Virus record (IMG/VR): IMGVR_UViG_3300033463_000087
Location: 11,366 to 75,365 of that record
From: a virus
Lineage: Duplodnaviria > Caudoviricetes
Reading direction: 5' to 3' (one strand)
Length of the DNA stretch: 64,000 nucleotides
This document shows, piece by piece, positions 15,677-57,723 of this stretch. Below the pieces are notes generated by a model. That model was given only the letters and a program-made list of their open reading frames with translations, made no database searches and had not been told where the DNA came from. The translations under genes were made by a program, and so were the position numbers. Numbering within the stretch: position 1 is the first letter of the stretch; each line of letters begins with the position of its first letter.

Positions 15677-15874
15677 TTATATTTCTTCAAAATCTTCTTC
15701 TAATCTAAACTTTGCTTCCTCGATAGCAGATAAAATATCTTCTTTAGACATACCTAATTTTTTATATTCTTCTACTAATTTTTCTAATGGCTTATAGAAA
15801 CGATGAACAGATTGTAATCTTAATTGCTCCATTGATTCATCAAAAACATTTTCTGCTTTAATTTTAAATTTCAT
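15677..15874 (-). CDS. Leader-bearing small protein (MKFKIKAE...); start corrected from ORF track
   Basis: GGAG RBS at 15884-15887 lies before the ATG at 15874. Confidence 0.7.
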   Translation of the reverse strand: MKFKIKAENVFDESMEQLRLQSVHRFYKPLEKLVEEYKKLGMSKEDILSAIEEAKFRLEEDFEEI

Positions 15875-15875
15875 T

Positions 15876-16100
15876 TTATAAATCTCCTTCACAATGTGGA
15901 CATTTTGAGTTTTTAAGACTAACTAAACGTTGATCTAAAATTTGATAAATTTGACCAACTTTTGTCCCAATTACTTTATTGCAATGAGGACAAATTACTT
16001 TTTCTTCTTTAGAAGCAGTTATTTTATTTTCTTCTAAAGGTTTAATTACTTCAATTTTGTTTTCTGCTTTTTTTGCTTTACCTTGTTTTTTAAATGCCAT
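15876..16100 (-). CDS. Small protein with CxxC...CxxC zinc ribbon
   Basis: CPHC...CPHC; GGAG RBS. Confidence 0.7.
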   Translation of the reverse strand: MAFKKQGKAKKAENKIEVIKPLEENKITASKEEKVICPHCNKVIGTKVGQIYQILDQRLVSLKNSKCPHCEGDL

Positions 16101-16117
16101 AATTAAATCTCCTTTTA

Positions 16118-16642
16118 TTAATTAAAATCAGCATAAAGTTTAAATAAATTATTTTTTATTTTTTTTAATGCTTCATCTTTATCTTTTATAATTTTATTTT
16201 GATTATTTTTTGTATCTAATATAACATATTTAGTTGATAATATTCTGTTAAAATTTACATTTTCTGTATCTATAATATTACATATATACATTGAATATTT
16301 ATCTAAAATATTTAAATTATTAATAATATACATATTACATTGTTGTAAAGTATCAAAATAATTTTCTATTAATAAATTAGATTTACTGCAATATAAATTT
16401 AATTTATTATAGTTTAAAATAAAATACATTTTAGGGTATTGTTTGGGTTTATAACCTTTAAAATCATAAATATTTTTAAATACTTTTAATAAATATTTTT
16501 TAACAACTTTTTGTTGTGTTACGATTTCATTTTTAATTGTATCTTCTTGTTTAATATTATTAGAATTATTTTCAAAAGATAATTCAAGTTGTTTTGGATT
16601 AATTATTATTTTCTTTTTACTTATAATTTTAATAAATTTCAT
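16118..16642 (-). CDS. Leader-bearing hypothetical protein (MKFIKIIS...)
   Basis: 174-aa ORF coupled to ferritin gene stop. Confidence 0.65.
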   Translation of the reverse strand: MKFIKIISKKKIIINPKQLELSFENNSNNIKQEDTIKNEIVTQQKVVKKYLLKVFKNIYDFKGYKPKQYPKMYFILNYNKLNLYCSKSNLLIENYFDTLQQCNMYIINNLNILDKYSMYICNIIDTENVNFNRILSTKYVILDTKNNQNKIIKDKDEALKKIKNNLFKLYADFN

Positions 16643-16644
16643 AA

Positions 16645-17142
16645 TTAAATAATTTCCATATCATTTAGGAAGTCTTCTAAATCTTGCTCATGATGTTGTT
16701 CGTCTTCCCATATTTTTCTTGCTATATGAAATGTAATTAGATCCCCACCATCTTTACAAGCCTTACAAATTGCATCATAAACATCTTCGGCACATCTTTC
16801 TGCTTCTAAATTTTGTGTAACTAAAACTTTAGTATTATAATCAGTAGGCTTAGTATAACCACAATTTGTATGTGTATACCACTCTTCAGGACTTTGTAAA
16901 GGAACACCACCAAGTTGAATAATTCTATCTTTTAACATTTGAGCATGTTTAAGTTCTTCTTCATAATGTTTTTGAAATTCTGCTTCAACTTCGGGTCTTA
17001 ATTTACCCACCGCCAAACCTATTGGTGCAAGATATTGAGTGGCTGCTAAATACTCATCGGCTAAAGCACGATTAAGCATACTTATTGTTGCTTGAACATC
17101 TATACCTTTTTCTTCTAATTTTTTAATTACATTTTGTGCCAT
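16645..17142 (-). CDS. Ferritin-like protein (DPSL / bacterioferritin type)
   Basis: LNRALADEY, EEELKHA...RIIQLGG, EAERCA...Y and EDEQHH give the di-iron ligand pattern. Confidence 0.85.
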   Translation of the reverse strand: MAQNVIKKLEEKGIDVQATISMLNRALADEYLAATQYLAPIGLAVGKLRPEVEAEFQKHYEEELKHAQMLKDRIIQLGGVPLQSPEEWYTHTNCGYTKPTDYNTKVLVTQNLEAERCAEDVYDAICKACKDGGDLITFHIARKIWEDEQHHEQDLEDFLNDMEII

Positions 17143-17144
17143 AA

Positions 17145-17702
17145 TTAATTATAATATCCTTTATATCTTATATTATATTTATGTCTTGCTTCATTTATTT
17201 CATAATCATTTTTAAATATTCCATCTCTAATTAAACTACTATTATCAATTTCATTTTGTAAAACTTTTTTTATTGCTTTTTCGTATAAAGGATGATTTTT
17301 AGTTATTATTTTTTCTTTTAATAATATACGAGCATTGGTAAGATCGCGTACTAAACTTGGTAATTTTTCATCTTTTGCTTTAATTGCTTCTTCGTAATAT
17401 GGAGAATTTTTAGTTATAATTTTATTCATTAATAGTTCTACAGCATAATTTTTAATTGCTTTTTTAATAAGTGGTTCAAAATATTTAGAATTTTTTGTTA
17501 TAAATTTTTCGCATAATAAACTTGAAGCAGCAGAACCATTACCATTATAATAGTCATATTCGGTTTTGCCTTGTAAAACTTGTTTTATTGCTTGATCAAA
17601 TATTTCTGTATTTTCTTTAATTTCTTTATCAAAAATAAGATTATATCCATCTTGACCATTTAATAAATCTTTTTTTGATTTAATTAATTTTATAAATTTC
17701 AT
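17145..17702 (-). CDS. Leader-bearing helical-repeat protein (MKFIKLIKS...)
   Basis: LLxxKIITKNxxYxxxI repeats, also seen in prohead protease C-terminus. Confidence 0.7.
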   Translation of the reverse strand: MKFIKLIKSKKDLLNGQDGYNLIFDKEIKENTEIFDQAIKQVLQGKTEYDYYNGNGSAASSLLCEKFITKNSKYFEPLIKKAIKNYAVELLMNKIITKNSPYYEEAIKAKDEKLPSLVRDLTNARILLKEKIITKNHPLYEKAIKKVLQNEIDNSSLIRDGIFKNDYEINEARHKYNIRYKGYYN

Positions 17703-17719
17703 AATATATTCCTCTCTTA

Positions 17720-17776
17720 TTAATTAATATATTCTCTAATAAATTTTTCTGCTTTAATTACTTTTATCATTTTCAT
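17720..17776 (-). CDS. 18-aa mini-ORF consisting mostly of the leader (MKMIKVIKAEKFIREYIN)
   Basis: Hand-translated; ATG 4 nt after upstream stop; leader near-identical to 57283-57723. Confidence 0.5.
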   Translation of the reverse strand: MKMIKVIKAEKFIREYIN

Positions 17777-17780
17777 AATA

Positions 17781-18152
17781 TTATTTTCTTTTAGTAAATC
17801 CTTTATTTCTTTCTTTGAAATCTTCAATATTATCTTTTACAGAATTAATAGGATTTATATCTATTTTAACTCCATCTAACTCTAAATTATATTTTGATAT
17901 AATATTAAATAAAGAATCATCACTAATATCTCCAGAATATTGTAACAGAACATCCAGATCACTTTCAGAGGTGTTTTCACCTCTTATATATGATCCAATT
18001 AATTCTATATTTTCAATTTCAATATCGAGGTTATTTTCTTTAATAATATTTTCTATATCTGTTTGTATAGAACTAATAATATCAGAAATATACCACATAT
18101 TTCCATTGAGTTCTATTTCTTTTTCAGATTTTATTAATTTAATAAATTTCAT
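17781..18152 (-). CDS. Minimal nucleotidyltransferase (Pol-beta superfamily) with leader MKFIKLIKS
   Basis: LIGSYIRGENTSESDLDVLL is the GS..RG....SDxD motif. Confidence 0.85.
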   Translation of the reverse strand: MKFIKLIKSEKEIELNGNMWYISDIISSIQTDIENIIKENNLDIEIENIELIGSYIRGENTSESDLDVLLQYSGDISDDSLFNIISKYNLELDGVKIDINPINSVKDNIEDFKERNKGFTKRK

Positions 18153-18178
18153 ATAAAAATATAAATTTATTTATTTTA

Positions 18179-18457
18179 CTAATTATTACGTCGATATTCG
18201 TCTTCTTCTTTAGCTGCTTTTGCTAAAATATCTTCTACTTTATTCCAACATTCATCCCAATATTTTTCGTCTATATTAAGATCAATTAAACAATCATTTG
18301 TAATTGCAGTGTTTTCTTTAATATCTACAGTATTTTCAATAAATTCAACCAATTCATACTCATCATCACAATTTCCCACCATATCGTTAAACCATTCTTG
18401 TACTTTCTCTTCCAAATCATCAATATTATTAGCTTTAATTAATTTTATAAACTTCAT
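18179..18457 (-). CDS. Leader-bearing acidic protein (MKFIKLIKANN...), internal start within the 204-aa ORF
   Basis: GGAG RBS and late promoter (18482-18499) just upstream of ATG 18457. Confidence 0.7.
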   Translation of the reverse strand: MKFIKLIKANNIDDLEEKVQEWFNDMVGNCDDEYELVEFIENTVDIKENTAITNDCLIDLNIDEKYWDECWNKVEDILAKAAKEEDEYRRNN

Positions 18458-18793
18458 AATTAATATTCTCCCATAATTTATTATAAAAATATAAATGAAA
18501 TGATAAATTGAATTTTTATTACGTTTCTTATAATAATTTGGATGTTTCTTCTCAAATTCTTTTCTATATTTCTTTAATTTTTCTTTATATTCTATATTTT
18601 CTTTATGTTTATGATAATATTTATTTTGATAATTATTTTGATATTTTCTATAAATATTATATCCTTTATTACCTTTAGAAACATACTTTTTTCTACAATC
18701 CTTACAAATAGTAGTATGTTTGTCTTTAGATTTATTATTGATATGAAATTTATTTAAAGGTAATTTTCTTTTACAATGGCCACATATTTTCAT
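18458..18793 (-). pseudogene. Zinc-finger N-terminus resembling HNH/EndoVII-type endonucleases, no nuclease domain, in frame with downstream gene
   Basis: CGHC...F......KD.....CKDC motif plus basic tail; the frame reads through the promoter. Confidence 0.45.
18482..18499 (-). promoter_or_regulatory. Putative late promoter inside the 204-aa ORF
   Basis: TTCATTTATATTTTTATA. Confidence 0.7.
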
Positions 18794-19170
18794 TTTAATT
18801 TTTCCCCTTCTTTTGTCCTTATTCTTAAACCAGGACCTTTTGGTATTCCAAAAATTTTACAACACTCATTAAATTGCTTTCCATGAGTGCTTTTACCGCC
18901 ATCTATATAATACATAATATGATGACAAAATTCATGAGTCAATATTTGTTTTATTTTTGCTTCACTATTTAAATCTAAAATATCATCATTTATGGAAATA
19001 ATATTATGTCCTGGATAATAACAAGCAATTTTAACTTCATCATCAATAGTAAGTATAGGTTCTTCAATGTTATATTGTTTATAAATAAGTTTTGCTTGTT
19101 CGGTAAGTAGTTTTATTGTTTTTAAGCAAAAATTTAATCTTGAAAGGATTTTGTTATCTAATATTAGCAT
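18790..19170 (-). CDS. SprT-like zinc metallopeptidase
   Basis: ILTHEFCHH (HExxH) followed by HGKQF. Confidence 0.8.
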   Translation of the reverse strand: MLILDNKILSRLNFCLKTIKLLTEQAKLIYKQYNIEEPILTIDDEVKIACYYPGHNIISINDDILDLNSEAKIKQILTHEFCHHIMYYIDGGKSTHGKQFNECCKIFGIPKGPGLRIRTKEGEKLK

Positions 19171-19984: not shown

Positions 19985-20920
19985 TTACGGTAATGTGATT
20001 GTTCTAACTGCTAACATATTATGTAAAACAACACCATAGTTTGCATAGCCAGTAACAATGTATTCAAGTTTCCAAGGCAAGTCTGTAATCTTGATTTGTT
20101 GATTTTGTCTCAACACATATTTACCAAGATATTCAGGTGCGGTCAAAACATAGGCTTTCTTAGCAGGGCAAAGTTTGCTAACTAAGAATTTCAAGCCCAT
20201 AATTTGGCTAACATAACCATTTTCAACGATTGTGTTTAAGGTTACTTGGTCAACAACTGCAGCAGATGTCAATGTGCTAATGAATTCATAGTAAGCAGCA
20301 GGATTCATAACGATTGCTGTTGCAACTAATTGATTAACCATCATATCTGCACGAGCAGTATTTAATGTCGCAAGTGAAAGATTCGGTGTAGCATTTAAGG
20401 TACCATAAGCACCAGATGCTTCAGCAGCGGCTAACACTTTGAACAATTCTTCATCCAAAGAAAGTGCTAAACCGACGGCAACTTTATTTTTGGCTTCGTC
20501 TAATGTATTATAGGCGGCTGTAAAGATTTGGTCATAAGAAACAACCCAGTTAATTGCTGTGGTATGCGTATTGTAGAAAATACGTTTCGGACCGCGTTCA
20601 ATACGAGCAGGAGCACCTTTAAACGGAACGATTGCAGCACCCAATTCAGGGAATTCAATATCAGCCCAAGCAACATTGTTTGAAATGTTGTCTTCTTTGA
20701 ATACCTTTGTGGTAATGGCTTCATACGGAATCCTTACTTTCAATGCTTGGCTGAAAGCAACTGCTGCTTTCTTTTGACCAAAAGCACCTTGGTTCATAAG
20801 ACCATTGTAATAAGTGTTAAGTTTTACTTGGTCTTGTGCTTCTTTTTCAGCAGAAGCCTGTTTTTTCATGCCTTCACCTTTTAAGAGGGAGGCTAATTGC
20901 ATTAATTCTTCTTTTGTCAT
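19985..20920 (-). CDS. Major capsid protein (HK97 fold)
   Basis: 311 aa with highly biased codons; VMNP..Y..F, GYVSQIMGLKFLVS and C-terminal pattern; follows scaffold and decoration genes; strong terminator. Confidence 0.85.
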   Translation of the reverse strand: MTKEELMQLASLLKGEGMKKQASAEKEAQDQVKLNTYYNGLMNQGAFGQKKAAVAFSQALKVRIPYEAITTKVFKEDNISNNVAWADIEFPELGAAIVPFKGAPARIERGPKRIFYNTHTTAINWVVSYDQIFTAAYNTLDEAKNKVAVGLALSLDEELFKVLAAAEASGAYGTLNATPNLSLATLNTARADMMVNQLVATAIVMNPAAYYEFISTLTSAAVVDQVTLNTIVENGYVSQIMGLKFLVSKLCPAKKAYVLTAPEYLGKYVLRQNQQIKITDLPWKLEYIVTGYANYGVVLHNMLAVRTITLP

Positions 20921-21401: not shown

Positions 21402-22943
21402 CTATTTAGAATTTCTAGATTGGAATTCCATTTCTTTTTCAAGAACAAGGGCTTCCATATCTTCGGTAGAAGATAAATCTTCTTCCTTTAAGTTAAAAGC
21501 AGGAACAAAACCTGCGAGTTCGCTAGCTTCTTTTTTCATTGCTTCGTTTATCATGCGTTCGTGCATATTTGTTGCTTCTTCCGCTGGGCAGCAAGTATAT
21601 GTTTCATATATTGCATTAAGTTGCTCATTGGAATATTTAGCAAATTTTTCTGTCATAGCCGCTTTTTCTTCAGCATCTGTAATATTTAAGGAAGCAATAA
21701 TTTGTTTAATCTTGCTTGCTTTAATTGCAGTTGCTTCTTTCTTGGCTACTTCTTCAAGTTGTGCTTTAAGAGCTTTAATTTCTGCTTCTTTGGAAGCAAT
21801 AACTTCTTTTTGTGCTCTTAATTCTTTTGTAGCATCCCTTAAAGATTTAATTTGAGAAGCCATAGTTTTATCTTTTTTATTTCTTTCTTTGTTGAAGTCT
21901 TTTAAAGCCCATTCAACTTCTGTACCTACACCAGATTTGCTAGGTAAACGATTATATAAAGATTTAACTTTTGAAGGAGCAGCTTTTACATCTGCATCTT
22001 CATCGGCTTTCTTAAATTCTTTAGAATCTAAAGCGATTTCAGATTCAAGATTATCTTTCTTCACTTCATCTTCTTTAATGCTGAATTCTTTAAGTTCTTC
22101 AGCTTCATCATTATCAGTACCCGGAACAGTATCTTCAATTTCAGCAGCAATTAATTGTTTTGCTGAAAGTTTTTTACCGTTTTCAAGGGTAATTACGCCT
22201 TTTTCATTTGCTGTAATTTTCATATCTTTACCATCAACTTCAACGGTATCACCAACTTTTGCTTCTACTTTAGTAGCAACTTTCTTTGAAAGTTTGCTTG
22301 CTAATTTGGCAAAAGCACCAAAGGTATAGCCAATTTTATGTGCAATTTTATTAAAAACTGTTTCAGCTTCAGGTAATTTTTTACCTTCATTATATGCTTT
22401 AATAATGCTTGCTTTTAATTCTTTATTAAGAATTTTACCAGCTTTTAATGCTTTAATTTTGCCACCTTTAAGTTTCAAAATATAATAAGAATTATTTAAT
22501 GAAGCATGTGCAGTATGACAAGCAGCAGGAACATAACCAACTTCGTCAATTTCTTCCATTGTTTCAGGAACATTGACTTCTTCTTCTAATTCTTCTGCAA
22601 CTTCATCTTGCGGTTTTTCCGCTTCAATGATTGCTTCATAAATTTCTTTCTTTTCCTCATCTTCGCCTTCTACTTTTTCAACGAAGATTTCAGTGCCATC
22701 AGCTTTAGTAATTTTTGCTAAATCATCTGCTTCTTCTTCAGTTAATTTAACATTTTCTTCAACTGTTGCACCGTCAGATAAAACGATAAGATCCTCAGCT
22801 TCAGCTTTAGGTTCAGTTTTGGTTTTATTTTCCTTAACTTCTTCCTTTACTTCTTCTTTGGTATCTAAATCTTTTTCATCTTCTTTGATTTCAAGGTCTT
22901 TTTCTTCCTTGATTTCTTCGGCTTTGAGTTTTCTTTTTGCCAT
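21402..22943 (-). CDS. Head scaffolding protein
   Basis: E/K/A-rich with C-terminal coiled coil; between protease and MCP; late promoter. Confidence 0.75.
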   Translation of the reverse strand: MAKRKLKAEEIKEEKDLEIKEDEKDLDTKEEVKEEVKENKTKTEPKAEAEDLIVLSDGATVEENVKLTEEEADDLAKITKADGTEIFVEKVEGEDEEKKEIYEAIIEAEKPQDEVAEELEEEVNVPETMEEIDEVGYVPAACHTAHASLNNSYYILKLKGGKIKALKAGKILNKELKASIIKAYNEGKKLPEAETVFNKIAHKIGYTFGAFAKLASKLSKKVATKVEAKVGDTVEVDGKDMKITANEKGVITLENGKKLSAKQLIAAEIEDTVPGTDNDEAEELKEFSIKEDEVKKDNLESEIALDSKEFKKADEDADVKAAPSKVKSLYNRLPSKSGVGTEVEWALKDFNKERNKKDKTMASQIKSLRDATKELRAQKEVIASKEAEIKALKAQLEEVAKKEATAIKASKIKQIIASLNITDAEEKAAMTEKFAKYSNEQLNAIYETYTCCPAEEATNMHERMINEAMKKEASELAGFVPAFNLKEEDLSSTEDMEALVLEKEMEFQSRNSK

Positions 22944-23021: not shown

Positions 23022-24797
23022 TTAATAAGTTTCTTTAATAATTTCATTCAAATCTTTATTTATAGAAGCAGTAGAACTAAATGGTGTATAACTATAATTA
23101 TCACCATCTAAATAACTATCTATTTCTTTATCAAGATTTACTTGTTTGTTTTTAAATTTTTCCAATTCTTCTTCGGTAATAATATTATTTTCAAGCAAAT
23201 CGTCTATTTCATTATTTTCTATTGCCTTATTTAATACTTTATAAAAAAGTTTTCCATCGCGCTTTGTTACAATTTTATCTTGCAATAATTCAAAAACATC
23301 GCGCTTATTTAAAAAATCTTCAATTAAATCATTAAATATTTTTCCATCTTTTTTAGTAATAATCTTATGATAAAGTAAACTATATTTGCGACCTTTTTCA
23401 ATAAATTTATCTACCAATTCATTAAATAATTTTCCGTCTTCTTTTGTAATAATATGATTGTAGAGTAAATAATACCAATCATCTTTATCATTTTTATCAT
23501 TTATTATATCTTCAACAATTTTATTAAACAATTCTTTATCATTACGCGTTATAATTTCTTCATTAAGCAAATTAAATCTTTTGCCTTTTTTGGATAATTG
23601 TTTTACTTTTTCGATAAATTTATCATAATCAGTATTTTTTAATTTTTTAAGATAATTCATTTCATCTACATATTCATCATGATTTAAATAACTATTTATC
23701 TCCTTATCTAAATTAACTTCTTCTTGATGTTGTTCACCAAAGTTTTCTGCTTCATCTTCAATCATTATTAAAGGTTCTTGATTTATTGATTGTGCTACGG
23801 GTTGTTCTTTAACCTCTTCTTGGTTTGTTTGAGTTTCAAGTTTTTGTAAATCCATTATATTTAAACCAATTTGTAATTGCATAAGTTCACGAACAATACC
23901 TTGTAATGGATTTGTAATAATTTGTGTATTATCTACACCCATTATAGTAGTTAAAAGTGAATCTGCTAAAATTTTCATTTTATTTAACAAATCTACATTA
24001 CTTAATGCTTTAAACTGTTCTTCGCAAGCCATTTTAAATTCTTTCATTTTGCCCGCTTGTTTAATAGCCATATATTTGTTAAATTCTTCTTTAACATTAC
24101 TTTTCTTTTTTGATGCTTTAATATCAAAAACAAAGGCATCTTTATCTGCCGGAACTTCAACAGCACTTAAACCTGTAAAGCAAATATCTTTGTTTATTTC
24201 ATACACATAATCACCATTTTCATCTTGCTTACCTTTCATATAGGTAATCGGGTTATTAGGATTCATATGCTCACAAAGATTATCAAAAGAAGTAGCAACA
24301 TTACCACATTTTGAACAAATACAAGTGCTTGCTAAACAAGACATAGAAACTTGGTTATAAGTACCATCTAATATTTGTTGACAAAATTCAGGGTATTCAT
24401 TTTTATCAATAGCACAAAGGCAAACAACATATTCTTCTTCATCATTTGGCACAGCATCAAGAACAATACCTTTAGCATCGGCTTCACTATCTTCTTTATG
24501 TTCAATATAAAAACCTACACCTGGATATGTCGGTAATGCTTTTTTAATTTCTTCCCACGGAAAAGCATCAAAGTTACCATTATAACCATGTTTTTCCATA
24601 CCCGAAATTGCACGAGCAGTTAAAAATAAAAAGTTTTTTGTGTCATAGTTATATGCTTCTTGTGGTAGAAATTTAGTTCTATCATTTGAGGGATTTTCAT
24701 TTGCTTGTTTTACAAAATCTCTCCATTGAAATTTACCGTTTGCGTCTGTAGCATAAACGGATTTAATATCTAAAGTTGCTTTTCTAAGAAATGCCAT
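23022..24797 (-). CDS. Prohead maturation protease with C-terminal repeat extension
   Basis: YIEH, VSMSC, C-x-C-x-x-C and GLSAVEVPAD match assemblin-like phage proteases; upstream of scaffold. Confidence 0.75.
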   Translation of the reverse strand: MAFLRKATLDIKSVYATDANGKFQWRDFVKQANENPSNDRTKFLPQEAYNYDTKNFLFLTARAISGMEKHGYNGNFDAFPWEEIKKALPTYPGVGFYIEHKEDSEADAKGIVLDAVPNDEEEYVVCLCAIDKNEYPEFCQQILDGTYNQVSMSCLASTCICSKCGNVATSFDNLCEHMNPNNPITYMKGKQDENGDYVYEINKDICFTGLSAVEVPADKDAFVFDIKASKKKSNVKEEFNKYMAIKQAGKMKEFKMACEEQFKALSNVDLLNKMKILADSLLTTIMGVDNTQIITNPLQGIVRELMQLQIGLNIMDLQKLETQTNQEEVKEQPVAQSINQEPLIMIEDEAENFGEQHQEEVNLDKEINSYLNHDEYVDEMNYLKKLKNTDYDKFIEKVKQLSKKGKRFNLLNEEIITRNDKELFNKIVEDIINDKNDKDDWYYLLYNHIITKEDGKLFNELVDKFIEKGRKYSLLYHKIITKKDGKIFNDLIEDFLNKRDVFELLQDKIVTKRDGKLFYKVLNKAIENNEIDDLLENNIITEEELEKFKNKQVNLDKEIDSYLDGDNYSYTPFSSTASINKDLNEIIKETY

Positions 24798-24799: not shown

Positions 24800-25027
24800 T
24801 TAATCCTCATCAACAAAAAACGGTACATTAAGATCAAAAGCATTTATTGATTTTAATATTCTATCAAATGTATTTTTAAGAACTAATTTATTTATTTCTT
24901 GTTCCTTATTTTCTGCAATTTCATTATATTTACGAGCTAATTCAAGAGTAGCATGTTCTAATTCCGAATAAAAATTATCTTTTATTAATTCGTTATTTTC
25001 TGCTTTAATTAATTTTGTAAATTTCAT
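24800..25027 (-). CDS. Leader-bearing small protein (MKFTKLIKAE...)
   Basis: GAGG RBS; leader. Confidence 0.75.
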   Translation of the reverse strand: MKFTKLIKAENNELIKDNFYSELEHATLELARKYNEIAENKEQEINKLVLKNTFDRILKSINAFDLNVPFFVDED

Positions 25028-25040: not shown

Positions 25041-25262
25041 CTAATCTTCTTTTCTATACTCTTCTATTGAAGATAATACTTGTTTTAATTTATATTCAAT
25101 GTTAACTAAAAGATCATTAATGCTAGTTTCGTCACCAGATTGTATAAAATCTGATAATTCACCTACTTCTCTTTCTGTTAAAACTTCAAGTTTATTTACA
25201 ACATTATCATTTAGTAAATCAAGTTTATTTTGTGAAAGTTCTGCTTTAATTTTAAATTTCAT
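25041..25262 (-). CDS. Leader-bearing small protein (MKFKIKAE...)
   Basis: GAGG RBS; leader. Confidence 0.75.
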   Translation of the reverse strand: MKFKIKAELSQNKLDLLNDNVVNKLEVLTEREVGELSDFIQSGDETSINDLLVNIEYKLKQVLSSIEEYRKED

Positions 25263-27434: not shown

Positions 27435-27827
27435 TTAATTCCTCTCATTTAATTCATCACATTCATCCTGTGCCTCTTCGAAAGTATCAAAATAATAAAT
27501 ATCACCATCATCATCTTGATAAGGTATTCCTTCAAAATTATCGAAGATAAAAAATCTTCTATCTCTATTGCCTTCAAAAATATCAGATTTTCCCCAATCT
27601 TCTCTTTGAACCTCAAATCTTAAATTATTGGATGCTTTTTTATATTTATGTTCAGCTCTAAGATAATCTAATTCTGTTTGAGCCTCTTTTTCAGTATCAA
27701 AATGATATTCTCTGCCTTCTTCATCTTTATAAATACCTTCGGGTCCTTTTATAACATAATAAGATTTATCTTTTTCATCTACTTTTTCTAAATTCCAACT
27801 TGCTTTAATTAATTTTATAAATTTCAT
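27435..27827 (-). CDS. Leader-bearing protein with internal duplication (MKFIKLIKAS...)
   Basis: Two halves ending YHFDTEKEAQTE and YYFDTFEEAQDE. Confidence 0.75.
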   Translation of the reverse strand: MKFIKLIKASWNLEKVDEKDKSYYVIKGPEGIYKDEEGREYHFDTEKEAQTELDYLRAEHKYKKASNNLRFEVQREDWGKSDIFEGNRDRRFFIFDNFEGIPYQDDDGDIYYFDTFEEAQDECDELNERN

Positions 27828-27830: not shown

Positions 27831-28385
27831 TTATTTCCTCTTATTTAAATATTCTAATGCTTCTTGGGTTCTTTGATCTGATACTTCTTCCCAAGTTTTA
27901 AATTTAGGTAAAGCTTGCTTAATAGCTTTATCTAATTGTTTTATTTGTTCTTTCATTTCATTTACTTTTATTTCTAAACGATTTTTTTCTGAATATAAAG
28001 TATCAATAAATTCATAATCAAAATTTAACTTTCCAATACCATCTTCAGTTAATCTTTTTAATTCATAATAATCATCGTGATATTTTTCAATATCATTTTC
28101 TAATTTATGTTTTTGTACATAAAAATCTCTATTTTCAGAAAATTGTTTAATAGTTAAACCGATTATTTTTTCAAAATCTTTTTCATCAAATTTTTCTTTT
28201 TGTTCATCTGTTAAATAATCAAATTCTATAGTATCCCTAAGACTATCCCAAACTTCAATATTGTCATCACTATTTGTAGGATCATAAATTTCTGAATCTG
28301 ACCAATTGTCTTTATCAAATTTAGCTTTTATTTGATTGATTTCTTCTTCTGTTAAACTTGCTTTAATTAATTTTGTAAATTTCAT
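27831..28385 (-). CDS. Leader-bearing acidic/coiled-coil protein (MKFTKLIKAS...)
   Basis: GAGG RBS; leader. Confidence 0.75.
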   Translation of the reverse strand: MKFTKLIKASLTEEEINQIKAKFDKDNWSDSEIYDPTNSDDNIEVWDSLRDTIEFDYLTDEQKEKFDEKDFEKIIGLTIKQFSENRDFYVQKHKLENDIEKYHDDYYELKRLTEDGIGKLNFDYEFIDTLYSEKNRLEIKVNEMKEQIKQLDKAIKQALPKFKTWEEVSDQRTQEALEYLNKRK

Positions 28386-28980
28386 AAACTACCTCACATT
28401 TTTGATAGCATAAATAATATTATTTAGACTAATACCATACTTGTCTGGTATACCCGATTTCATCTCTTTTGCTAATTGTTCTTCATCACCTGTAAAGGCA
28501 AAACCCCAAACAGAATCAACTACATCATCATTTTCATCCATAATTTGGAAACCATAATAAGTAGTAGTTTCTATTTCATTATAATCTTCTATAAAATATT
28601 TTAAAGCATCTTCTTGTTCGGGTGTAAATTTGCCTTTAACTGCAGCAAAACCTGCTAAACCACTATCCCATTGGTCGGAAAATTGACCACCACGACCTAA
28701 ACTTAAAACAATACCACCATGAATATAAGCATAAATTGGTCTTAAATCCCAACCTTCTTTTTTTAATTCCTTGGCATTACCTTTATAACTTTCTTCATGG
28801 TTAGATAAAGTATAACGACTTAAATTAGATAATATTTTAACACCTGCATAATATAAATTATCACAGGCATCTTCAAATGCACTACGTGATCCATCATCAT
28901 CATATCTAACTTCAATTCTATATTTTTTATTTAAATTTTCTTCTGCTTTAATTAATTTTGTAAATTTCATAAACTACCTC
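28359..28980 (-). repeat. Identical 37-bp direct repeat (RBS plus leader) at 28359-28395 and 28944-28980
   Basis: tgctttaattaattttgtaaatttcataaactacctc occurs twice; near-copies at 25001 and 27801. Confidence 0.9.
28389..28970 (-). CDS. Leader-bearing protein (MKFTKLIKAE...) with YAYIHGG...WDSG...DSVWGF motif
   Basis: GAGG RBS; leader; conserved-looking aromatic motifs. Confidence 0.75.
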   Translation of the reverse strand: MKFTKLIKAEENLNKKYRIEVRYDDDGSRSAFEDACDNLYYAGVKILSNLSRYTLSNHEESYKGNAKELKKEGWDLRPIYAYIHGGIVLSLGRGGQFSDQWDSGLAGFAAVKGKFTPEQEDALKYFIEDYNEIETTTYYGFQIMDENDDVVDSVWGFAFTGDEEQLAKEMKSGIPDKYGISLNNIIYAIKNVR

Positions 28981-29192
28981 TAAATAATATTATTACGAAT
29001 CTCATCAAACTTATCTGAAATAATATCTGCCAACTCTTTAATTTTTTCTCTTTGTTCAAGAGATAGAGTTACATTTGCATTTTTCATATCTTTAGCAAAT
29101 TTAGCAGTTTTTATTGCAGTTTCCACCAAAGAATCTAACAATGCTGTAGGAATTATGTGTTTATCTGATTTTATTATTTTTAAAAATTTCAT
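28980..29192 (-). CDS. Leader-bearing small protein (MKFLKIIKSD...)
   Basis: Coupled to upstream stop; leader. Confidence 0.7.
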   Translation of the reverse strand: MKFLKIIKSDKHIIPTALLDSLVETAIKTAKFAKDMKNANVTLSLEQREKIKELADIISDKFDEIRNNII

Positions 29193-47039: not shown

Positions 47040-48197
47040 TTAAATAGTTTCAAACCAATCTAAAAATTCATCTAAATTGTAAAATATTTTATAATTAAGA
47101 TTATTTTGTTTAAAAGTTTGTAATTTTCTTGGATCTAAATCAGTCCAAGTATAAATCATAAAATCATATTGATTCTTTATATTTTTATTTTTTCTTAATT
47201 TTAAAGATTTTAATTGTAAACATAATAACTTTATTAAATCTTGTTTATTATTTTTATCAAAAGGTTTTCCTTGATGAAATTGGCTAAAATGACATTCAAT
47301 ATATAAATTTAATGATTTAACATAAAAATCACATTTAAAAGGATATTTATCATTCATATATGATCTTTCTATGTCGTCTTTTAAAAATTTTGTTAAAAGC
47401 AAATTATAGCAATTATCTTCTGGTTTTGAAGGATTACAATGAGTTTTATTTCTTCTCATCGTTTCATATCGTTTTTGTTTTGTACTTTGTAATTGTAATT
47501 TGTCTCTATATTTCTTTAATTGAAAAATACATTTTACTCCTGTCTTTATTATATTAGTATTTATTATTTTATTTGTTATTATTTGTCTGTAATTTTTACC
47601 AAAATGTTTTTCTAAAGTTAATTTACTTTTACTATAATTTATATAGGGTTTACCGTCTTTTGTTCTTGTTTTATAACATTTACTTCTTACATCCTTATCT
47701 TGTAATGCATATTGTACACCTCTTAATGTTATATTTGTATTTTTTGATTTTTCTCTAAATTCTTTCGTGTGCATATAAGATATATTATTATATTTTAATT
47801 TGCAAGTTTCTTGCGCTTTTTTAAAATTATTATATTTACCATCACCATATCTTATTTCTTTGGTTTTATAAGAATTAATACTTCTTTTCTTGCTTACATT
47901 CTTATCTTTTAATACACAAATTTTACTACAATGATAACCATAACCACTTTGTAAATTCCTAAATATATTTTTCTTTCCACAAATTGGACAAAATATATGT
48001 AAATTTTTTAAGTTATCTTTATTCTTTAACAAATAAATTAATTCAGGAACTGAAAACTTACAATTATATTTAGAAATTAAAAAATTTTTTATATTTTTAT
48101 TTATTTTATTTTTAATTATCTGTTGAAAAGTACCAAATATTATAAGTTTATCTTTTAAATGATTATTAATTAAGTATATAATATCTTTTATTGTCAT
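47040..48197 (-). mobile_element. Free-standing homing-endonuclease-like gene (Zn-finger/basic repeats plus PD-(D/E)xK-like C-terminus)
   Basis: CPICGK...HCSKIC; KYPFKCDFYV..LNLYIEC; Lys/Asn-rich; inserted between neck and tube genes. Confidence 0.7.
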
Positions 48198-49212: not shown

Positions 49213-50928
49213 TTAATCAATATTTATAGATATACTCACATTTACCCAACGAATCTCAAACAAGGGTAAATATTGGAATGAAATATCTAATTGTTTAGGA
49301 TTATTAGCAGCATAATTTGCTGTAACATTTCTAAAGTCTTTAATTTCTTCCACACTTACATAATTTGTAAGAATTGATTCCGTTTTAACTTGAGCAGAAC
49401 TTGCAGTTGCAGGTGTATTCTTTTTACCAATATAAATTGCAAGTTGTTTTCTTAAATCAGTTCTAATCAAATCTGTAACTCTTCTAACTTGTCTTGTTTC
49501 AGTAATAACTGATGAACTATTAGTTGTAAATATATCAAATACTTGGGTTAGATTTGTATTTTCATTGAAGTCAAGCATACTCAAGAAATTGCTGCAAAGA
49601 TAATTTCTTTCAGAAGGATCAAATCTTTGGTCACCAACTAATGTAATTCTTGCAGGTAAGGTTTTCCTTAGCATAGGTTCACTATAACCATATTCAGGAT
49701 TACCTTCAATACCAGAAAGAGCACAAAGAGCATAAATAGCACTTAATTCAACATCTGTTTCTTCTTGTGTTTCAGCATCTGCCAAAGTAATTGTTACTTT
49801 ATTGTTAGCAAAATATGTAACCCTATCATTCATTAAACCTTCTCTTTGAGCAACAATGGTATCTGTACTTAAAGTATCACTATTAGGAATAATAAATGTT
49901 GTTCTTTCTTTACCATATAAAGCAGAAGAACAAGTTTCTAAATTTTGTATTAAATAATTTCTTAAAGCAATAGAATCTTGTTTTAAGATAATCACTGTTT
50001 GTACATTAAAATCCATTAAATCATCAATGGCTTTCTTATAAGAAGCATCTGTATTATCAGGTACTTGAACACAATAAACACCACCACCAAGTAATGTTTG
50101 ACCTTCTAATACTAAGTCTGCTGCTAATGTAATAGGTTGAATTACACCATTAAGATATTCAGGACCATAAACTTCTGCAATTGCCGTTTGATTAAATAAT
50201 AATGTCGGTTTAAAATCACCTCTGGATGCACTCTTATTTAATTTATATGTAATATAAAAAGTTGAACCAGCAACAGGTTTATTTGTTGAAATCCAAGTAA
50301 TAGTTGTATTATCAGTATTAATAGTATAATCAATACCTAATGTATAATTATAAAAACCAGAAATATTACCAAGACCTACAACTTCTAAAATATCACCAGC
50401 AACAGCATTTGTACCATTAGGTAATTTAATTGTATCTGTATCTGTCGGCGCAGCAATAATTTGTAAAGCACCTTCTGTTGCTTCTGTTGAAGTTGCAAAA
50501 CCATTACCTTGAATAGTTGCAATTACTTGTAAAGCATTAGCATCACCTTCTAATGCTAATTTATAACCATAAGAATCTTCTGTATCTTCTAAAATAACGA
50601 AGTCACCAACGGAAACTGTACCATCACTAATCCAATGTGCTTTTACTAAACCAATTTGAACTTTACCAGCAGCGGGTGCTGTTGTATCTGTCCATAAAAC
50701 ATAATTACCAACTGCAGGTGTATATTCACCTACAATAGGTGTAACATCACTTAAAATAATATTTGCTTTAGGTGTAACAACTTTTGATTTTGTCAATTCT
50801 AAATTTTTAATTGTAGTATATAATTGACCTTGTCCAATAACTGCTGTCCTATTATAACCAGAAGCAGTTGAACCTAAACTTTGTGTGGTCTCTGAAAAAT
50901 AGACCCCAGGAACACGATATAATGCCAT
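49213..50928 (-). CDS. Tail sheath protein
   Basis: YRVPGVYFSE N-terminus; C-terminal ETRQVRRVTDLIR...FQYLPLFEIRWVNVSI. Confidence 0.9.
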   Translation of the reverse strand: MALYRVPGVYFSETTQSLGSTASGYNRTAVIGQGQLYTTIKNLELTKSKVVTPKANIILSDVTPIVGEYTPAVGNYVLWTDTTAPAAGKVQIGLVKAHWISDGTVSVGDFVILEDTEDSYGYKLALEGDANALQVIATIQGNGFATSTEATEGALQIIAAPTDTDTIKLPNGTNAVAGDILEVVGLGNISGFYNYTLGIDYTINTDNTTITWISTNKPVAGSTFYITYKLNKSASRGDFKPTLLFNQTAIAEVYGPEYLNGVIQPITLAADLVLEGQTLLGGGVYCVQVPDNTDASYKKAIDDLMDFNVQTVIILKQDSIALRNYLIQNLETCSSALYGKERTTFIIPNSDTLSTDTIVAQREGLMNDRVTYFANNKVTITLADAETQEETDVELSAIYALCALSGIEGNPEYGYSEPMLRKTLPARITLVGDQRFDPSERNYLCSNFLSMLDFNENTNLTQVFDIFTTNSSSVITETRQVRRVTDLIRTDLRKQLAIYIGKKNTPATASSAQVKTESILTNYVSVEEIKDFRNVTANYAANNPKQLDISFQYLPLFEIRWVNVSISINID

Positions 50929-53056: not shown

Positions 53057-53836
53057 TTATCTTATGTTGCCCTCATAATTTACATAAACATCGGGTAATT
53101 CACCATTTTTATCCCAAACTTTCATTTCACTTTGTGCATTTACGTGGCTGTGAAAAAATATAGGTGCCTCATATTCAGTAGTATCAATTAAATTTTTTAA
53201 TGTCCAAGTTTTACCATTTATACTTTTACAAAATTTACAAGCATTTGGATGCGCTATAAATGTGGCCATATTATAGCCTTGCTCTAATAAATCTTCAAAA
53301 ACAGGTAAACTTACATCTTGCAAAGGATATATGCTTTTTGGTTTTATCTTATAACGCTTGGAAACCGATTTATTTTGTGTTTTATAAGGTTTTTTAGTGG
53401 GTTTAATAGTCTTATTAGGTTTCTTCTTTAAAACCTTATTGGGTTTAATTTTAAAGCGTTTTGATGTATTTATTGTCTTTTTAGTTGTTTTAGTAGGTTT
53501 TTTAACTATTTTCTTAACTTTTGGACTTGTTTTCTTTGTTTTAGCAGAAATAATTCTAATCCAATTAGATTTTTTATCAAAATTAATATCTAAATTATTA
53601 TCGTACCAATCTTTTATAATATTAAACCAATCATCTATACTATAATTTAAAAAAGATTTTATTGCGCCACTTTCACCTAATATTATTTGTTTTTCTGCTC
53701 TAGCGAGTTTATCAGCTGTTTCGTCATCATCAGAATATATATAAACTAAGCCATTATCAAAATTTAAAATAATATCTTTTAAACCTAATTCTTTTTCACA
53801 CAATTGTTGTAATTTTTTATTTCTAATATTTTTCAT
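53057..53836 (-). CDS. Head morphogenesis (MuF-like) protein with Lys/Pro-rich linker
   Basis: C-terminal AHPNACKFC...HSHVN; repeated KP(T/N)K..KK. Confidence 0.45.
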   Translation of the reverse strand: MKNIRNKKLQQLCEKELGLKDIILNFDNGLVYIYSDDDETADKLARAEKQIILGESGAIKSFLNYSIDDWFNIIKDWYDNNLDINFDKKSNWIRIISAKTKKTSPKVKKIVKKPTKTTKKTINTSKRFKIKPNKVLKKKPNKTIKPTKKPYKTQNKSVSKRYKIKPKSIYPLQDVSLPVFEDLLEQGYNMATFIAHPNACKFCKSINGKTWTLKNLIDTTEYEAPIFFHSHVNAQSEMKVWDKNGELPDVYVNYEGNIR

Positions 53837-53839
53837 AAT

Positions 53840-54325
53840 TTATTTATTTTTATGTTTAAAATATTCAACTTGTTTTAATCTTTTTTCTGCTTCTTCTTTA
53901 GTATCATAAGTTCCCAAGTTCTTTCCTTTCTCGGATTGAACCTGGTACTTATTATCTTTCTTAACTATTTTAGAAAGTAATTTAATCCAAGAAGATTCTT
54001 TTATAAATTTTTTATTAAATAAAATCTCTGCAACTTCAGGAATAGATAATTTTTTTGATGCTAATTCTTCAAAAATATTTACAAAATTTATATTTGCTGG
54101 ACTTATACCATTCTTCTTACATAGAAATATAAATACTACAAATGCAGTTCTTTTATTACCATCAATAAAATAATGTCCTTTTATTAAACTATATACGATT
54201 GATGCTATCTGTTCTTCAATTGTATTATAATATAAATAAGATGATAAACAACCAGAACAATTTCTATTTGTTTTTGTATTTTGTACTATTTCATTAATTT
54301 TAGAAATTGTTTCAGGATTAATCAT
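53840..54325 (-). CDS. doc: Doc-type Fic-family toxin fused to a small C-terminal phage domain
   Basis: HYFIDGNKRTAF (Doc motif with Lys); C-terminus KNLGTYDTKEEAEKRLKQVEYFKH. Confidence 0.75.
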   Translation of the reverse strand: MINPETISKINEIVQNTKTNRNCSGCLSSYLYYNTIEEQIASIVYSLIKGHYFIDGNKRTAFVVFIFLCKKNGISPANINFVNIFEELASKKLSIPEVAEILFNKKFIKESSWIKLLSKIVKKDNKYQVQSEKGKNLGTYDTKEEAEKRLKQVEYFKHKNK

Positions 54326-54435
54326 TTATCTTTTAAACCTTCTATAACATCTTTATATTCTTTTATTATTTCTTTTACGGTTTCAACATCGTTATTAGTT
54401 ATTTCTTCTTTTTTTGCTAATTTAATCCATTTCAT
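54322..54435 (-). CDS. 37-aa putative antitoxin with leader (MKWIKLAKKEEITNNDVETVKEIIKEYKDVIEGLKDK), not in ORF track
   Basis: Hand-translated; GGTG RBS; ATGA overlap with doc; late-promoter variant at 54445. Confidence 0.65.
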   Translation of the reverse strand: MKWIKLAKKEEITNNDVETVKEIIKEYKDVIEGLKDK

Positions 54436-54462: not shown

Positions 54463-54502
54463 TATATTAATATTATAATATATTTTAAAGAAAATTTAAT
54501 AC

Positions 54503-55135: not shown

Positions 55136-55531
55136 TTATACAATCTCCAATTCTATTTTTTCTTTCATTTCAAACATAGGTTTTATTCTATTCATTAAAC
55201 GAGTAAATGTAACTCTACTATCTAATACTTTACCTTTTTCTTTATTAAAACCTACTAAAATACATCCTTCTGTATCATCCTTTGTGTTGCCACTATGAAT
55301 CCTAACACCTTCAAAATTAGGTACATTTAATAATAAAGGCAAATTCTTTTTAAATCTTGGCGAATAAGATATTGTTACTTCATATTTACCAAAGGGTATA
55401 GCAGTTTCGGCATAAATCTTCTTCTCTCTTATTGCATCTTCTAAAGTATCACAAAAATATTCTTTATTGATATATAATTTACCAATAGTATATTCTGATC
55501 CTTTATAAGTTCTTTTTAATGTTAAAAGCAT
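55136..55531 (-). CDS. DUF5675-family protein (putative cell-wall peptidase / endolysin)
   Basis: TIGKLY...CDTLED, TAIP.G.Y, GVRIHSGNT..DTEGCILVG. Confidence 0.85.
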   Translation of the reverse strand: MLLTLKRTYKGSEYTIGKLYINKEYFCDTLEDAIREKKIYAETAIPFGKYEVTISYSPRFKKNLPLLLNVPNFEGVRIHSGNTKDDTEGCILVGFNKEKGKVLDSRVTFTRLMNRIKPMFEMKEKIELEIV

Positions 55532-57171
55532 TAGTCCCCTAAAAATATATTTAATGTATAAATTCCTTTGCCTTCATCTGCAGGTAAAGTTTCGTTATTA
55601 CAAAAAATACCTAAATCTCTTACTTTACTTTCTATTGTATTTATAGTTTTAGCATCACCTCTAACAGAAATATTACCTTTATTTTCATCTTCAATAGAAA
55701 CACCTACTGAACCATTTTTTATATAAGGATCTAAAATACCACCTAAAGATAATAATTGAGGTGTTAATTTTGCTGATTGAACATTTACCCAACCTTTTGT
55801 ATCTACTTTAATATCTGTACTAGGACTTACTGATTGATTAGGAAAATCTAAACCTTGTATTGTTGTTTCACCATAAGCAGAATCAATTTCTTTCACTTCA
55901 ATACTTTGACTGCCTTCATATTCAGGATGTTCCATAATAAATTTAACTTTAGCATCTGTAGAATTTTTTGCTTCAATTTGTGCTAACTCACTGCCATCTT
56001 TTTCAAAAATACTAAATTTAGGCATTTGACTTTCTAAAAGAACACTTTGTCCTTTTTTAGTATTTTCAATAATCATATCTTTAAATAATTGTGTAGTATA
56101 TAAATAAGTATCTATATTTGAATTTTTATCATTTTCTGAATCAAATAGTGCTTTTAAAACACTTTTTAATTGTATTGCTATTGGATCTTCATCAGAATAA
56201 TTTTCTTCAGTAATTGTGTAATTATTCAAATCTTCTATAAATAACGGATAATATTTATTCCAAGATTTTTCTAACCGTTCATTAGTAGATTCTTCAGATT
56301 TAATAGTTTTAGCAGTAGTATCTACAGTAGAAATATCTTTTGTATACCAATCAATTAAATAAGACTTCTTTTCTTTATTATATTCTTGTTGTGCTGCTTG
56401 TTTAAGTAAGTTTAACCCTTTATAAGTAATAGAATATTTAGGACCACGAATAGGATTGATGCCCGCAAGTTTAATAAGACCACCACTAATTAAACCTTTT
56501 TCAATTTTAATTTCTTTTGAATATTTATCACCGTCTAAAAATTGATTTAAAGAATCAATTAAAGTAGATTTAATAGGTGTATACATTTGAGTAGTAGTTG
56601 TACTATTTAAATTATTTACATTATTAGGATTATATGTAGGAGGTGTAACTACGGGATTATCTTTCATTACCGCAATCCATTGATTTGCTTTCGGATCCCA
56701 TGCATACTCCATATTATCTGGTAAAGTTGTTGTTGGTTTTGGGGTTGTAGGTTGTTCTGAAGAATTTTTATAAAATTGTTTCTCTTTTTCATCATTTACA
56801 CCGTCCCAATAACCACGCTCATATTCTTCTGAATGTTTTTCATGTATATCATCTGGATCTTCTGGGTAATGATGCTTAAACATATATTTTCCATCTTTAT
56901 AACCTTGTTTATAACCGCCATCATCTTTTCTCACATCTTCTGTGGAATTATATGTTTCTATAATGTTAAATGAATCTTTACTTTTTTGCTCATACAACTC
57001 AACATCATTTTTATTTTTGTATTTCTTTTTTAATAAATCAAAATATTTTTTAGCTTCTTGTTTATTTTGGAAATCTTTTTCATGCACAAGAGAACCACCA
57101 TATTCATAAACTGATACATTATAGTATGGATATTCTAATTTTATTTTTGATGTCACTTTAATAAATTTCAT
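55531..57171 (-). CDS. Leader-bearing multi-module late protein (MKFIKVTS...)
   Basis: 546 aa; late promoter at 57194; low-complexity linkers. Confidence 0.7.
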   Translation of the reverse strand: MKFIKVTSKIKLEYPYYNVSVYEYGGSLVHEKDFQNKQEAKKYFDLLKKKYKNKNDVELYEQKSKDSFNIIETYNSTEDVRKDDGGYKQGYKDGKYMFKHHYPEDPDDIHEKHSEEYERGYWDGVNDEKEKQFYKNSSEQPTTPKPTTTLPDNMEYAWDPKANQWIAVMKDNPVVTPPTYNPNNVNNLNSTTTTQMYTPIKSTLIDSLNQFLDGDKYSKEIKIEKGLISGGLIKLAGINPIRGPKYSITYKGLNLLKQAAQQEYNKEKKSYLIDWYTKDISTVDTTAKTIKSEESTNERLEKSWNKYYPLFIEDLNNYTITEENYSDEDPIAIQLKSVLKALFDSENDKNSNIDTYLYTTQLFKDMIIENTKKGQSVLLESQMPKFSIFEKDGSELAQIEAKNSTDAKVKFIMEHPEYEGSQSIEVKEIDSAYGETTIQGLDFPNQSVSPSTDIKVDTKGWVNVQSAKLTPQLLSLGGILDPYIKNGSVGVSIEDENKGNISVRGDAKTINTIESKVRDLGIFCNNETLPADEGKGIYTLNIFLGD

Positions 57172-57193
57172 ATAAAATCCTCAATAATTATAA

Positions 57194-57211
57194 TATATAA
57201 ATATAAATGAA
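57194..57211 (-). promoter_or_regulatory. Putative late promoter
   Basis: TTCATTTATATTTATATA. Confidence 0.75.
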
Positions 57212-57220
57212 AAGTAAAAT

Positions 57221-57256
57221 AAAACACCTACCAAAAAAATAATCTTGATAGGTGTT
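57221..57256 (-). terminator. Intrinsic terminator
   Basis: AACACCTA...TAGGTGTT plus U-tract. Confidence 0.6.
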
Positions 57257-57282
57257 CGCCACTGCAGGTAAGGACTTAAATT

Positions 57283-57723
57283 TTAATCACCTTCATAACT
57301 ATCTTCCCAGTAATTAAGATTTTCATCTTCATATATTATATGTTCTAAATTTTTAGCAAATTTACTATCAGGAGATATATTATAGTCTACTGTTTTGCCA
57401 TCTAATTTAGTTATTTTTAATGATTTTATTTTAATATATTCATAATAACCACTTGTCATGCGATAATAGATGTTAGAACTATGATTATCATAAGTTTCTT
57501 CAGGGCTATCCATATCTAATTCATAATCTAAAGTTAATTCTGATACAAATGAATCATTGTCACCATAAACAACTATATCACAAGTGTCTTGATATATCTT
57601 ACCATTAAATTCCCAATCAAATTCTTCATTTTCAAGTTTTTTAATAAAATCTTCAACACTCATAACATCCAATACACTTGGGTAAAATTCGTCCTTAGCT
57701 TTAATAACTTTAATCATTTTCAT
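57283..57723 (-). CDS. Leader-bearing acidic protein (MKMIKVIKA...)
   Basis: GAGG RBS; degenerate late promoter; terminator follows. Confidence 0.75.
   Translation of the reverse strand: MKMIKVIKAKDEFYPSVLDVMSVEDFIKKLENEEFDWEFNGKIYQDTCDIVVYGDNDSFVSELTLDYELDMDSPEETYDNHSSNIYYRMTSGYYEYIKIKSLKITKLDGKTVDYNISPDSKFAKNLEHIIYEDENLNYWEDSYEGD

Follow-up and report, generated by a model that had tools for sequence, protein, structure and literature searches.

We find that a set of otherwise unrelated late genes in a 64,000-nucleotide stretch of viral DNA (the window; bases 11366-75365 of the 75.4-kb linear virus contig IMGVR_UViG_3300033463_000087, 26% GC) begin with one short peptide, M-K-(F/W/Y)-(I/T/V)-(K/R)-(L/V/I)-(I/L/V)-K-(A/S), which is probably a portable, cleavable N-terminal propeptide that works in the manner of the capsid-targeting sequence (CTS) of phage T4. 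A first-pass annotation of this DNA had proposed a packaging tag analogous to the T4 CTS with a different sequence, and that proposal is now strengthened by selection on the leader at the peptide level, by its restriction to the late region and head genes, and by the match of its end to putative sites of the head protease; packaging itself, and with it targeting, the exact position of the cut, retention in the virion and delivery, is what we infer from these sequence features.

The annotation listed 15 leader starts, and all of them are genuine ATG starts on the minus strand, which carries nearly all window genes, with the N-termini that it gave. Its figure of about 15 tagged genes holds for the starts and is generous for the genes, as it takes in one stub, one open reading frame (ORF) of 37 amino acids (aa) and three deviant leaders. 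Gene identities here and below were assigned via PHROGs, Pfam and tblastn, and positions are those of the window.

15677-15874 (-): leader gene, 65 aa, short form MKFKIKAE
16118-16642 (-): leader-like gene, 174 aa, deviant end ..IIS, basic body
17145-17702 (-): leader gene, 185 aa, helical LL..KIITK repeats, weakly resembling an insert in the protease tail
17720-17776 (-): stub of 18 codons, leader MKMIKVIKA (a variant also found at 57723), probably a remnant
17781-18152 (-): leader gene, 123 aa, minimal nucleotidyltransferase (NTase; PF01909/PF18765), whose orthologue in the related locus L001 is tagged too
18179-18457 (-): leader gene, 92 aa, very acidic, with its own ribosome-binding site (RBS) and a promoter-like motif at 18498
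24800-25027 (-): leader gene, 75 aa, immediately upstream of the protease gene
25041-25262 (-): leader gene, 73 aa, short form MKFKIKAE
27435-27827 (-): leader gene, 130 aa, W-x-V-x-K..DG body family
27831-28385 (-): leader gene, 184 aa, acidic ORFan
28389-28970 (-): leader gene, 193 aa, phrog_6186
28980-29192 (-): leader gene, 70 aa
54322-54435 (-): 37-aa ORF, leader variant MKWIKLAK, upstream of a Doc gene
55531-57171 (-): 546-aa protein, partial leader ..KVTS, membership doubtful
57283-57723 (-): leader gene, 146 aa, net charge -23, with a tagged orthologue in locus L007

The pattern MK(F/M)xK(L/I/V)IK(A/S) stands at 10 of these starts and the shortened MKFKIKAE at two (15874 and 25262), which gives a full or shortened leader with a K-(A/S) end at 12 of the 15; the deviant ends are those at 16642 (..IIS), 54435 (..LAK) and 57171 (..VTS). 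Among 92 genes, amino-acid composition leads one to expect 0.001 leader N-termini, and 13 are observed when genes of 50 aa or more are counted. All of these fall among the 62 genes of the late region, as against none among the 30 genes elsewhere on the contig (Fisher p = 0.008); none occurs past 57.75 kb, as the annotation had stated, nor in the 11 kb of contig outside the window. When a position matrix of the leader is run over all ORFs of the window and seven related loci, some 35 of the top 40 matches are N-terminal, and the matches sit almost only at protein residues 2-4. The reported clustering around the head genes is confirmed, and every leader gene follows a copy of the motif that the annotation took for a late promoter. 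That motif, TTTCATTTATATTT (extended form TTTCATTTATATTT(A/T)TATA), has about 15 coding-strand copies between 3570 and 57751 and none beyond, and lies ahead of structural operons; we regard its identity as a late promoter as a candidate assignment. The bodies behind the leader are unrelated, with zero BLASTP pairs within the window at E < 1e-3, and they are mostly acidic (isoelectric point, pI, of 5.0 or less in 11 of 14), differing only marginally in this from the other encoded proteins (median pI 4.7 vs 5.9, p = 0.07).

Megablast of 20 kb yields no DNA-level relative among cultured phages, and a scan with the back-translated major capsid protein (MCP) and with the exact leader DNA pattern yields zero matches in a viral contig set. 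Relatives were reached through protein homologues and their contigs, which provided the seven loci, each around an MCP homologue of 49-73% identity. The sole match of the MCP in a cultured phage is gp27 of Bacillus phage G (27% identity); metagenomes hold 58 MCP homologues, several of them on contigs of 130-170 kb, and a 136-kb metagenomic contig encodes an MCP identical to that of the window.

The leader recurs in six of the seven loci with conservative swaps (F to W, Y or L; K to R or H; I to V or L), examples being MKFIRVLKA, MKWIRILKA, MKYIHLIKA, MWTRLLKA and MSKFFKIKKA, and these swaps between phages alter bases (AAA to AGA, TTT to TGG or TAT). Within the window the upstream DNA of the copies differs, and their codons vary synonymously (ATT/ATA, GCA/GCT, TCA/TCT/AGT). 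Across related phages the leader stays constant while the bodies vary: the 44 tagged proteins of the window and six loci fall into 36 BLAST clusters. For the body encoded at 28389-28970, 13 orthologues are tagged and three distant homologues (P0073-75) begin directly with the body; in an AlphaFold2 model of this protein (predicted local distance difference test score, pLDDT, of 80), residues 1-7 score below 50 and the fold begins near residue 18. Being constant on changing bodies, absent from distant homologues and outside the modelled fold, the leader has the properties of a portable add-on. The hydrophobic moment of the peptide is highest at helical periodicity, reaching 0.7-1.0 at 100-120 degrees. 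These results support the conclusion that selection acts on the leader as a peptide, for which the evidence is stronger than for a DNA feature. Recombination within the tag is plausible as well, because an identical 37-bp repeat, made up of the RBS and the first nine codons, is found at two adjacent leader genes (28359-28395 and 28944-28980); it is likely a substrate for cassette shuffling.

The leader appears to end in the probable recognition motif of the phage's own head protease, (I/L/V)-K-(A/S). The head genes and putative sites on which this reading draws are the following, the scaffold gene being placed upstream of the gene of a 147-aa protein and of the MCP gene.

23022-24797 (-): prohead protease, 591 aa, phrog_18299; assemblin/gp21-fold domain at residues ~40-228, then a C-terminal extension
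24111-24134 (-): FVFDIKAS, leader-like putative release site directly after the protease domain
21402-22943 (-): scaffold-like protein rich in E, K and A, 513 aa, N-terminus ..KLKAEE
21522-21539 (-): MKKEAS, ~40 residues before the scaffold C-terminus; M-x-K-E-A-S with 4 of 6 residues invariant in 7 homologues
19985-20920 (-): MCP, 311 aa, PF25209
20852-20866 (-): K-K-x-A-S, MCP residues 19-23, putative propeptide cut; invariant in 8 homologues whose N-terminus is otherwise variable

A profile of the protease finds nothing among Protein Data Bank (PDB) sequences, and a fold search is needed to see the relationship. When the protease domain is modelled with AlphaFold2 from 53 sequences (pLDDT 87), the top ~45 fold matches in the PDB are herpesvirus assemblins and T4 gp21, and the model superimposes on T4 gp21 (5jbl) with a template-modelling score of 0.61 by target and a root-mean-square deviation of 3.2 over 173 columns. 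The protease groups with those of phage G, cluster C mycobacteriophages and Rhodococcus E3, and its family counts 2,089 relatives among 1.8 billion protein representatives, many of them 700-2,400 aa long. Counted in the best 150 of these relatives, the catalytic residues are kept in nearly all aligned representatives (H100 in 145/145, S151 in 146/146, H177 in 137/144).

Seven close protease homologues share an invariant PADKDA where the catalytic domain ends, and behind it they have F-(V/I)-(F/T)-(D/E)-I-(K/R)-A-(S/A)-K; the window's version, FVFDIKAS, equals the tag F-I-K-L-I-K-A-S at 5 of 8 positions. A228 is invariant in all seven, and the next residue is Ser in six and Ala in one. The same site in the best 150 relatives has Ala at the A228 position in 104 of 133 (78%) and a small residue in 119 of 133, Ser next in 65 of 125 (52%), and V, I or L at P3 in 111 of 139 (80%). 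The form (hydrophobic/K)-x-A-S occurs six times in the 513 aa of the scaffold, an enrichment of about 6-fold that is partly owed to its A/K-rich composition, compared with 0.18 per 100 aa in tail proteins and a single occurrence in 1,913 aa of cargo bodies. Because the cargo bodies, unlike the scaffold, are nearly free of x-A-S sites, they are suggested to survive the protease, and the counts fit a scheme in which the scaffold would be fragmented and the cargo spared.

The motif would also serve as a cut joint besides its role as an N-terminal tag, since fused and linker-bearing forms carry internal copies. Locus L004 encodes a protease polyprotein of 739 aa (1766-3985, plus strand) with a long C-terminal extension, which is also present in the family representative P0081; the extension holds a W-x-V-x-K..DG domain preceded by ..QAS-KQFFKIKKAS-W.., so that the L004 linker consists of an MCP-type site and then L004's own tag. 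The two polyproteins contain two or three internal leader copies, each after an MCP-type ..QAS site and flanking the cargo domain, which in the window (27435-27827), L001, L005 and L007 forms a separate tagged protein. The window's own protease has an insert in its tail (23109-23720, minus strand, residues ~360-565), made of helical LL..KI(I/V)TK repeats bracketed by duplicated VNLDKEI(N/D)SYL, which five of six homologues lack and which shows weak similarity to the product of the tagged gene at 17145-17702 (E = 3e-4). Three further window genes have internal leader-like segments:

13062-15560 (-): very acidic protein of 832 aa, whose four basic linkers have leader-like ends (..KIKAS-KKVTS-S.., ..ES-SKKVKS-E.., ..TAS-KKVTA-E..)
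53840-54325 (-): Fic/Doc-domain protein (PF02661), in which SWIKLLS precedes a small C-terminal domain rich in K and E
53057-53836 (-): protein of 259 aa, in which NWIRIISA stands at residue 92 (matrix score 13.4)

The first is a candidate protease-jointed polyprotein, and the three-gene group at 53057-54435 (-) possibly encodes a packaged Doc-type toxin with protease-cut joints.

Bacillus phage G seems to have its own version of this system. Its protease gp19 is 35% identical to the window protease, and the domain is followed by ..EKVAS.. and by a second site, ..LKIAS... In the first 41 kb of the genome (JN638751.1), gp13, gp17, gp38, gp53 and gp57 begin M-K-(K)-R-L-(I/V/L)-(K/S)-K-..(A/S), and gp5, gp9, gp10, gp12, gp20 and gp56 show looser forms of the pattern. 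Genome-wide, a DNA pattern for K-R-L-(I/V/M)-K gives 20 forward matches vs 7 for the control, and 11 of the 20 lie directly after a start codon; at least 11 phage G genes begin M-K-R-L-(I/V/M)-K-(K)-(A/S/G). Starts of the form M-K-R-L-(I/V)-K-K-(A/S) belong to gp13, gp17, gp38 and gp53 and to genes near 73.3, 147.7, 207.4, 244.5, 254.7, 259.0, 388.1 and 446.7 kb. A literature search found no published report of this leader.

Recognisable domains are present in only three tagged bodies, namely the NTase at 17781-18152, its L001 orthologue and an ART-PolyVal ADP-ribosyltransferase in L003; Pfam and PHROGs return almost nothing else on the cargo bodies, apart from one unnamed PHROG. The AlphaFold2 model of the protein encoded at 28389-28970 has no Foldseek match in the PDB at E <= 0.001, and its best VIA Z of 5.2 is under the noise guide, so no fold is assignable; the protein encoded at 57283-57723 matches only unnamed clusters in the ESM Atlas, below 0.85. 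The NTase and ART-PolyVal assignments support the view that these tagged proteins are enzyme kinds typical of injected phage proteins, and in T4 the ADP-ribosyltransferase Alt, which has a propeptide of the CTS type, is packaged (PMC5694885). A role of the bodies as anti-defence effectors is speculative, and an anti-defence repertoire stays a conjecture because nearly all of the bodies are ORFans without a recognisable fold or family.

Several neighbours of these genes are recorded here for themselves. A ferritin/Dps-like gene without a leader (16645-17142, minus strand; PF00210, E = 2e-24) stands amid the leader-gene cluster, with the same placement in L001 and L007, and L006 has one too. An endonuclease VII-like ORF (phrog_2340; 18179-18793, minus strand) has no stop before the leader gene starting at 18457 and reads in frame through the promoter-like motif and RBS, which makes a fused product of the two possible from upstream transcripts; it adjoins a gene for a SprT-like metalloprotease (PF10263; 18790-19170, minus strand). 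Tail genes of the window include a baseplate wedge protein and the tail sheath:

2114-3532: baseplate wedge protein
49213-50928: tail sheath

A homing-endonuclease-like gene (phrog_3339; 47040-48197, minus strand) lies between tail genes. The relative L002 encodes, near its head genes, a reverse transcriptase (RVT_1; 1-345) and a fused AAA_33/Metallophos/T4 RNA-ligase protein (1854-4052).

Under the capsid-targeting reading, tagged proteins made late in infection would be recruited into the core of the assembling prohead, with the scaffold or the inner MCP surface as candidate receptors. The assemblin-fold serine protease would then cut after the leader-final Ala or Ser (P3 hydrophobic, P2 Lys, P1 Ala/Ser), and at sites of the same kind it would remove ~22 residues from the MCP, free itself from its C-terminal extension and trim or fragment the scaffold. 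The freed cargo would stay in the head and probably exit with the DNA at infection. More tentatively, and with rather less confidence than we place in the propeptide itself, we suggest that in a clade of gut and environmental phages (about 135-170 kb) together with the 497-kb phage G, a herpesvirus-like Ala|Ser head protease and a cationic amphipathic tag of 7-9 residues form a general loading and injection system, whose cargo would be rapidly exchanged first-strike effectors (NTase, ADP-ribosyltransferase, Doc kinase, ORFans).

A number of observations weigh against this interpretation. The K-(A/S) end is absent from three window members, and no gene that lies less than 10 kb from the MCP of L006 is tagged. 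Different residues follow the tag (E, S, N, K, D), whereas Ser takes this place at the conserved sites of the head proteins, and the sites in MCP and scaffold (K-K-x-A-S) differ from the leader end (I-K-A-x). As the motif is short and the proteome rich in K and A, single matches are weak, and it is positional invariance that carries the case for cut sites. Most of the bodies are acidic, as against the basic, DNA-bound internal proteins of T4, and the contig is ~56% complete (CheckV).

We weighed three other explanations. The tagged proteins might be accessories of the prohead core or scaffold that are targeted and clipped and then degraded, expelled or kept as structural filling, and so not delivered effectors. 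Tag-like ends on the scaffold N-terminus (..KLKAEE) and on a small Zn-ribbon protein (15876-16100, ..KAKKAEN), tag-like K-rich segments inside the scaffold core, and the many tiny (65-75 aa) acidic ORFan bodies without enzymatic signature all agree with such a role; we nonetheless consider it unlikely, as the scarcity of x-A-S sites in the cargo sets it apart from the scaffold, a turnover that leaves 36 clusters from 44 proteins between close phages is atypical for structural parts, and the enzymes among the bodies, NTase and ART-PolyVal, require a cellular target. Somewhat less probable again is recognition of the tag by another partner, be it a modifying enzyme (of the radical S-adenosylmethionine type or as for ribosomally synthesized and post-translationally modified peptides), a chaperone, a degradation adaptor or the membrane, to which a cationic amphipathic helix could bind. 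The strong helical hydrophobic moment of the tag is what one would expect there, but its end reproduces sites invariant in MCP, scaffold and protease, internal copies occur in the protease polyprotein, the tagged genes cluster at the head genes, and the 75-kb contig, itself ~56% complete, has no Radical_SAM (PF04055) match.

The shared start could, finally, be a nucleic-acid feature with a functionless peptide, either a recombination cassette of RBS and first codons or an A/U-rich translation-initiation or operator element. The 37-bp repeat, the use of the commonest AT-rich codons and the leader-only stub at 17776, which resembles a recombination scar, lend this some colour, yet upstream DNA otherwise differs, amino acids change conservatively while bases change, the most highly expressed late genes (MCP, sheath) have no tag, and the protease holds in-frame internal copies. 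Recombination within the tag moreover agrees with a targeting function and is to be expected of one, as in the T-even ip loci, and we hold this explanation to be very improbable.

If the capsid-targeting reading is true, the tag and the Ala/Ser cut rule would identify the packaged, and probably injected, proteome of a large, mostly uncultured phage clade. Such proteins would act ahead of phage gene expression and would therefore be prime candidates for counter-defence and host takeover, and the tag would help to prioritise cargo, since nearly all of it consists of ORFans. On the more tentative clade-wide reading, any gene that gains the tag, or becomes fused behind an internal copy in a protease polyprotein, would be packed and injected, and the tag would provide a means of protein delivery for phages of Gram-positive hosts. 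The tag could likewise load foreign proteins into such capsids. Phage G is culturable and has an analogous tag, which makes the idea directly testable. The assemblin link would extend past the fold to the layout and chemistry of release and maturation sites, and bears on a shared ancestry of capsid maturation in tailed phages and herpesviruses.

Among known systems, the cargo-loading peptides of encapsulins are short and steer diverse cargo into an HK97-fold shell, usually from the C-terminus, uncleaved and without protease or DNA delivery; they share with the leader the principle of a short conserved peptide that directs diverse cargo, and differ in being C-terminal and uncleaved. The capsid and scaffold leaders of staphylococcal phage 80alpha are L27-like extensions that end ..F-A| and are cut by the host protease Prp. 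We rejected a leader of this Prp/L27 type, as the tag has no Phe-Ala end and the phage encodes its own protease, and likewise a Sec or lipoprotein signal, as by eye no hydrophobic core follows the tag. In phiKZ and SPN3US, N-terminal propeptides of head-internal or ejected proteins are cut at (S/A)-x-E and have been proposed to be CTS-like (PMC5694885, PMC9026906). The likeness would lie in many head-internal proteins with N-terminal propeptides removed by the prohead protease; unlike the leader, those propeptides are mostly longer than 100 residues, are not one shared short peptide and have Glu at the end.

Herpesvirus assemblins have a Ser-His-His triad and cut sites of the YLQA-T and VQA-S type, with an R-site directly after the protease domain and an M-site a few dozen residues before the scaffold C-terminus (PMC4498786). 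The phage protease resembles assemblin (pUL26) in its fold and its invariant His/Ser/His, and its hydrophobic-x-A-S motif directly behind the catalytic domain, together with the one ~40 residues short of the end of the scaffold, reproduces the layout of R- and M-sites. In contrast to assemblin, protease and scaffold are separate genes in the phage, where cleavage is predicted, and herpesviruses are not known to place the (V/L/I)-x-A|S site in a transferable tag at the N-termini of numerous unrelated cargo proteins.

The closest parallel is the T4 CTS, a 10-residue N-terminal peptide on diverse internal proteins, the front of which targets and the end of which is processed, and which can load foreign proteins (PMC9026906, PMC3012670). 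Like the CTS of IPI, IPII, IPIII and Alt, which is processed by gp21, the leader is an N-terminal peptide of ~10 residues on otherwise unrelated, fast-evolving proteins; the phage encodes a head protease with the assemblin/gp21 fold, the tagged proteins include an ADP-ribosyltransferase (here in the relative L003), and the front of the leader could plausibly determine targeting while its end agrees with the predicted protease site. The differences are that the two peptides have no sequence similarity, that the lineages are unrelated, that bodies here are mostly acidic and those of T4 basic, and that ~12-15 genes are tagged per half genome as against a handful in T4. The predicted cut falls after Ala or Ser, and the T4 cut after Glu at (L/I)-x-E; only some tags have Glu next, and the conserved position is Ala/Ser. 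Because the sequence differs and the conserved position is Ala/Ser and not Glu, we propose that the tag works like the CTS without being its homologue.

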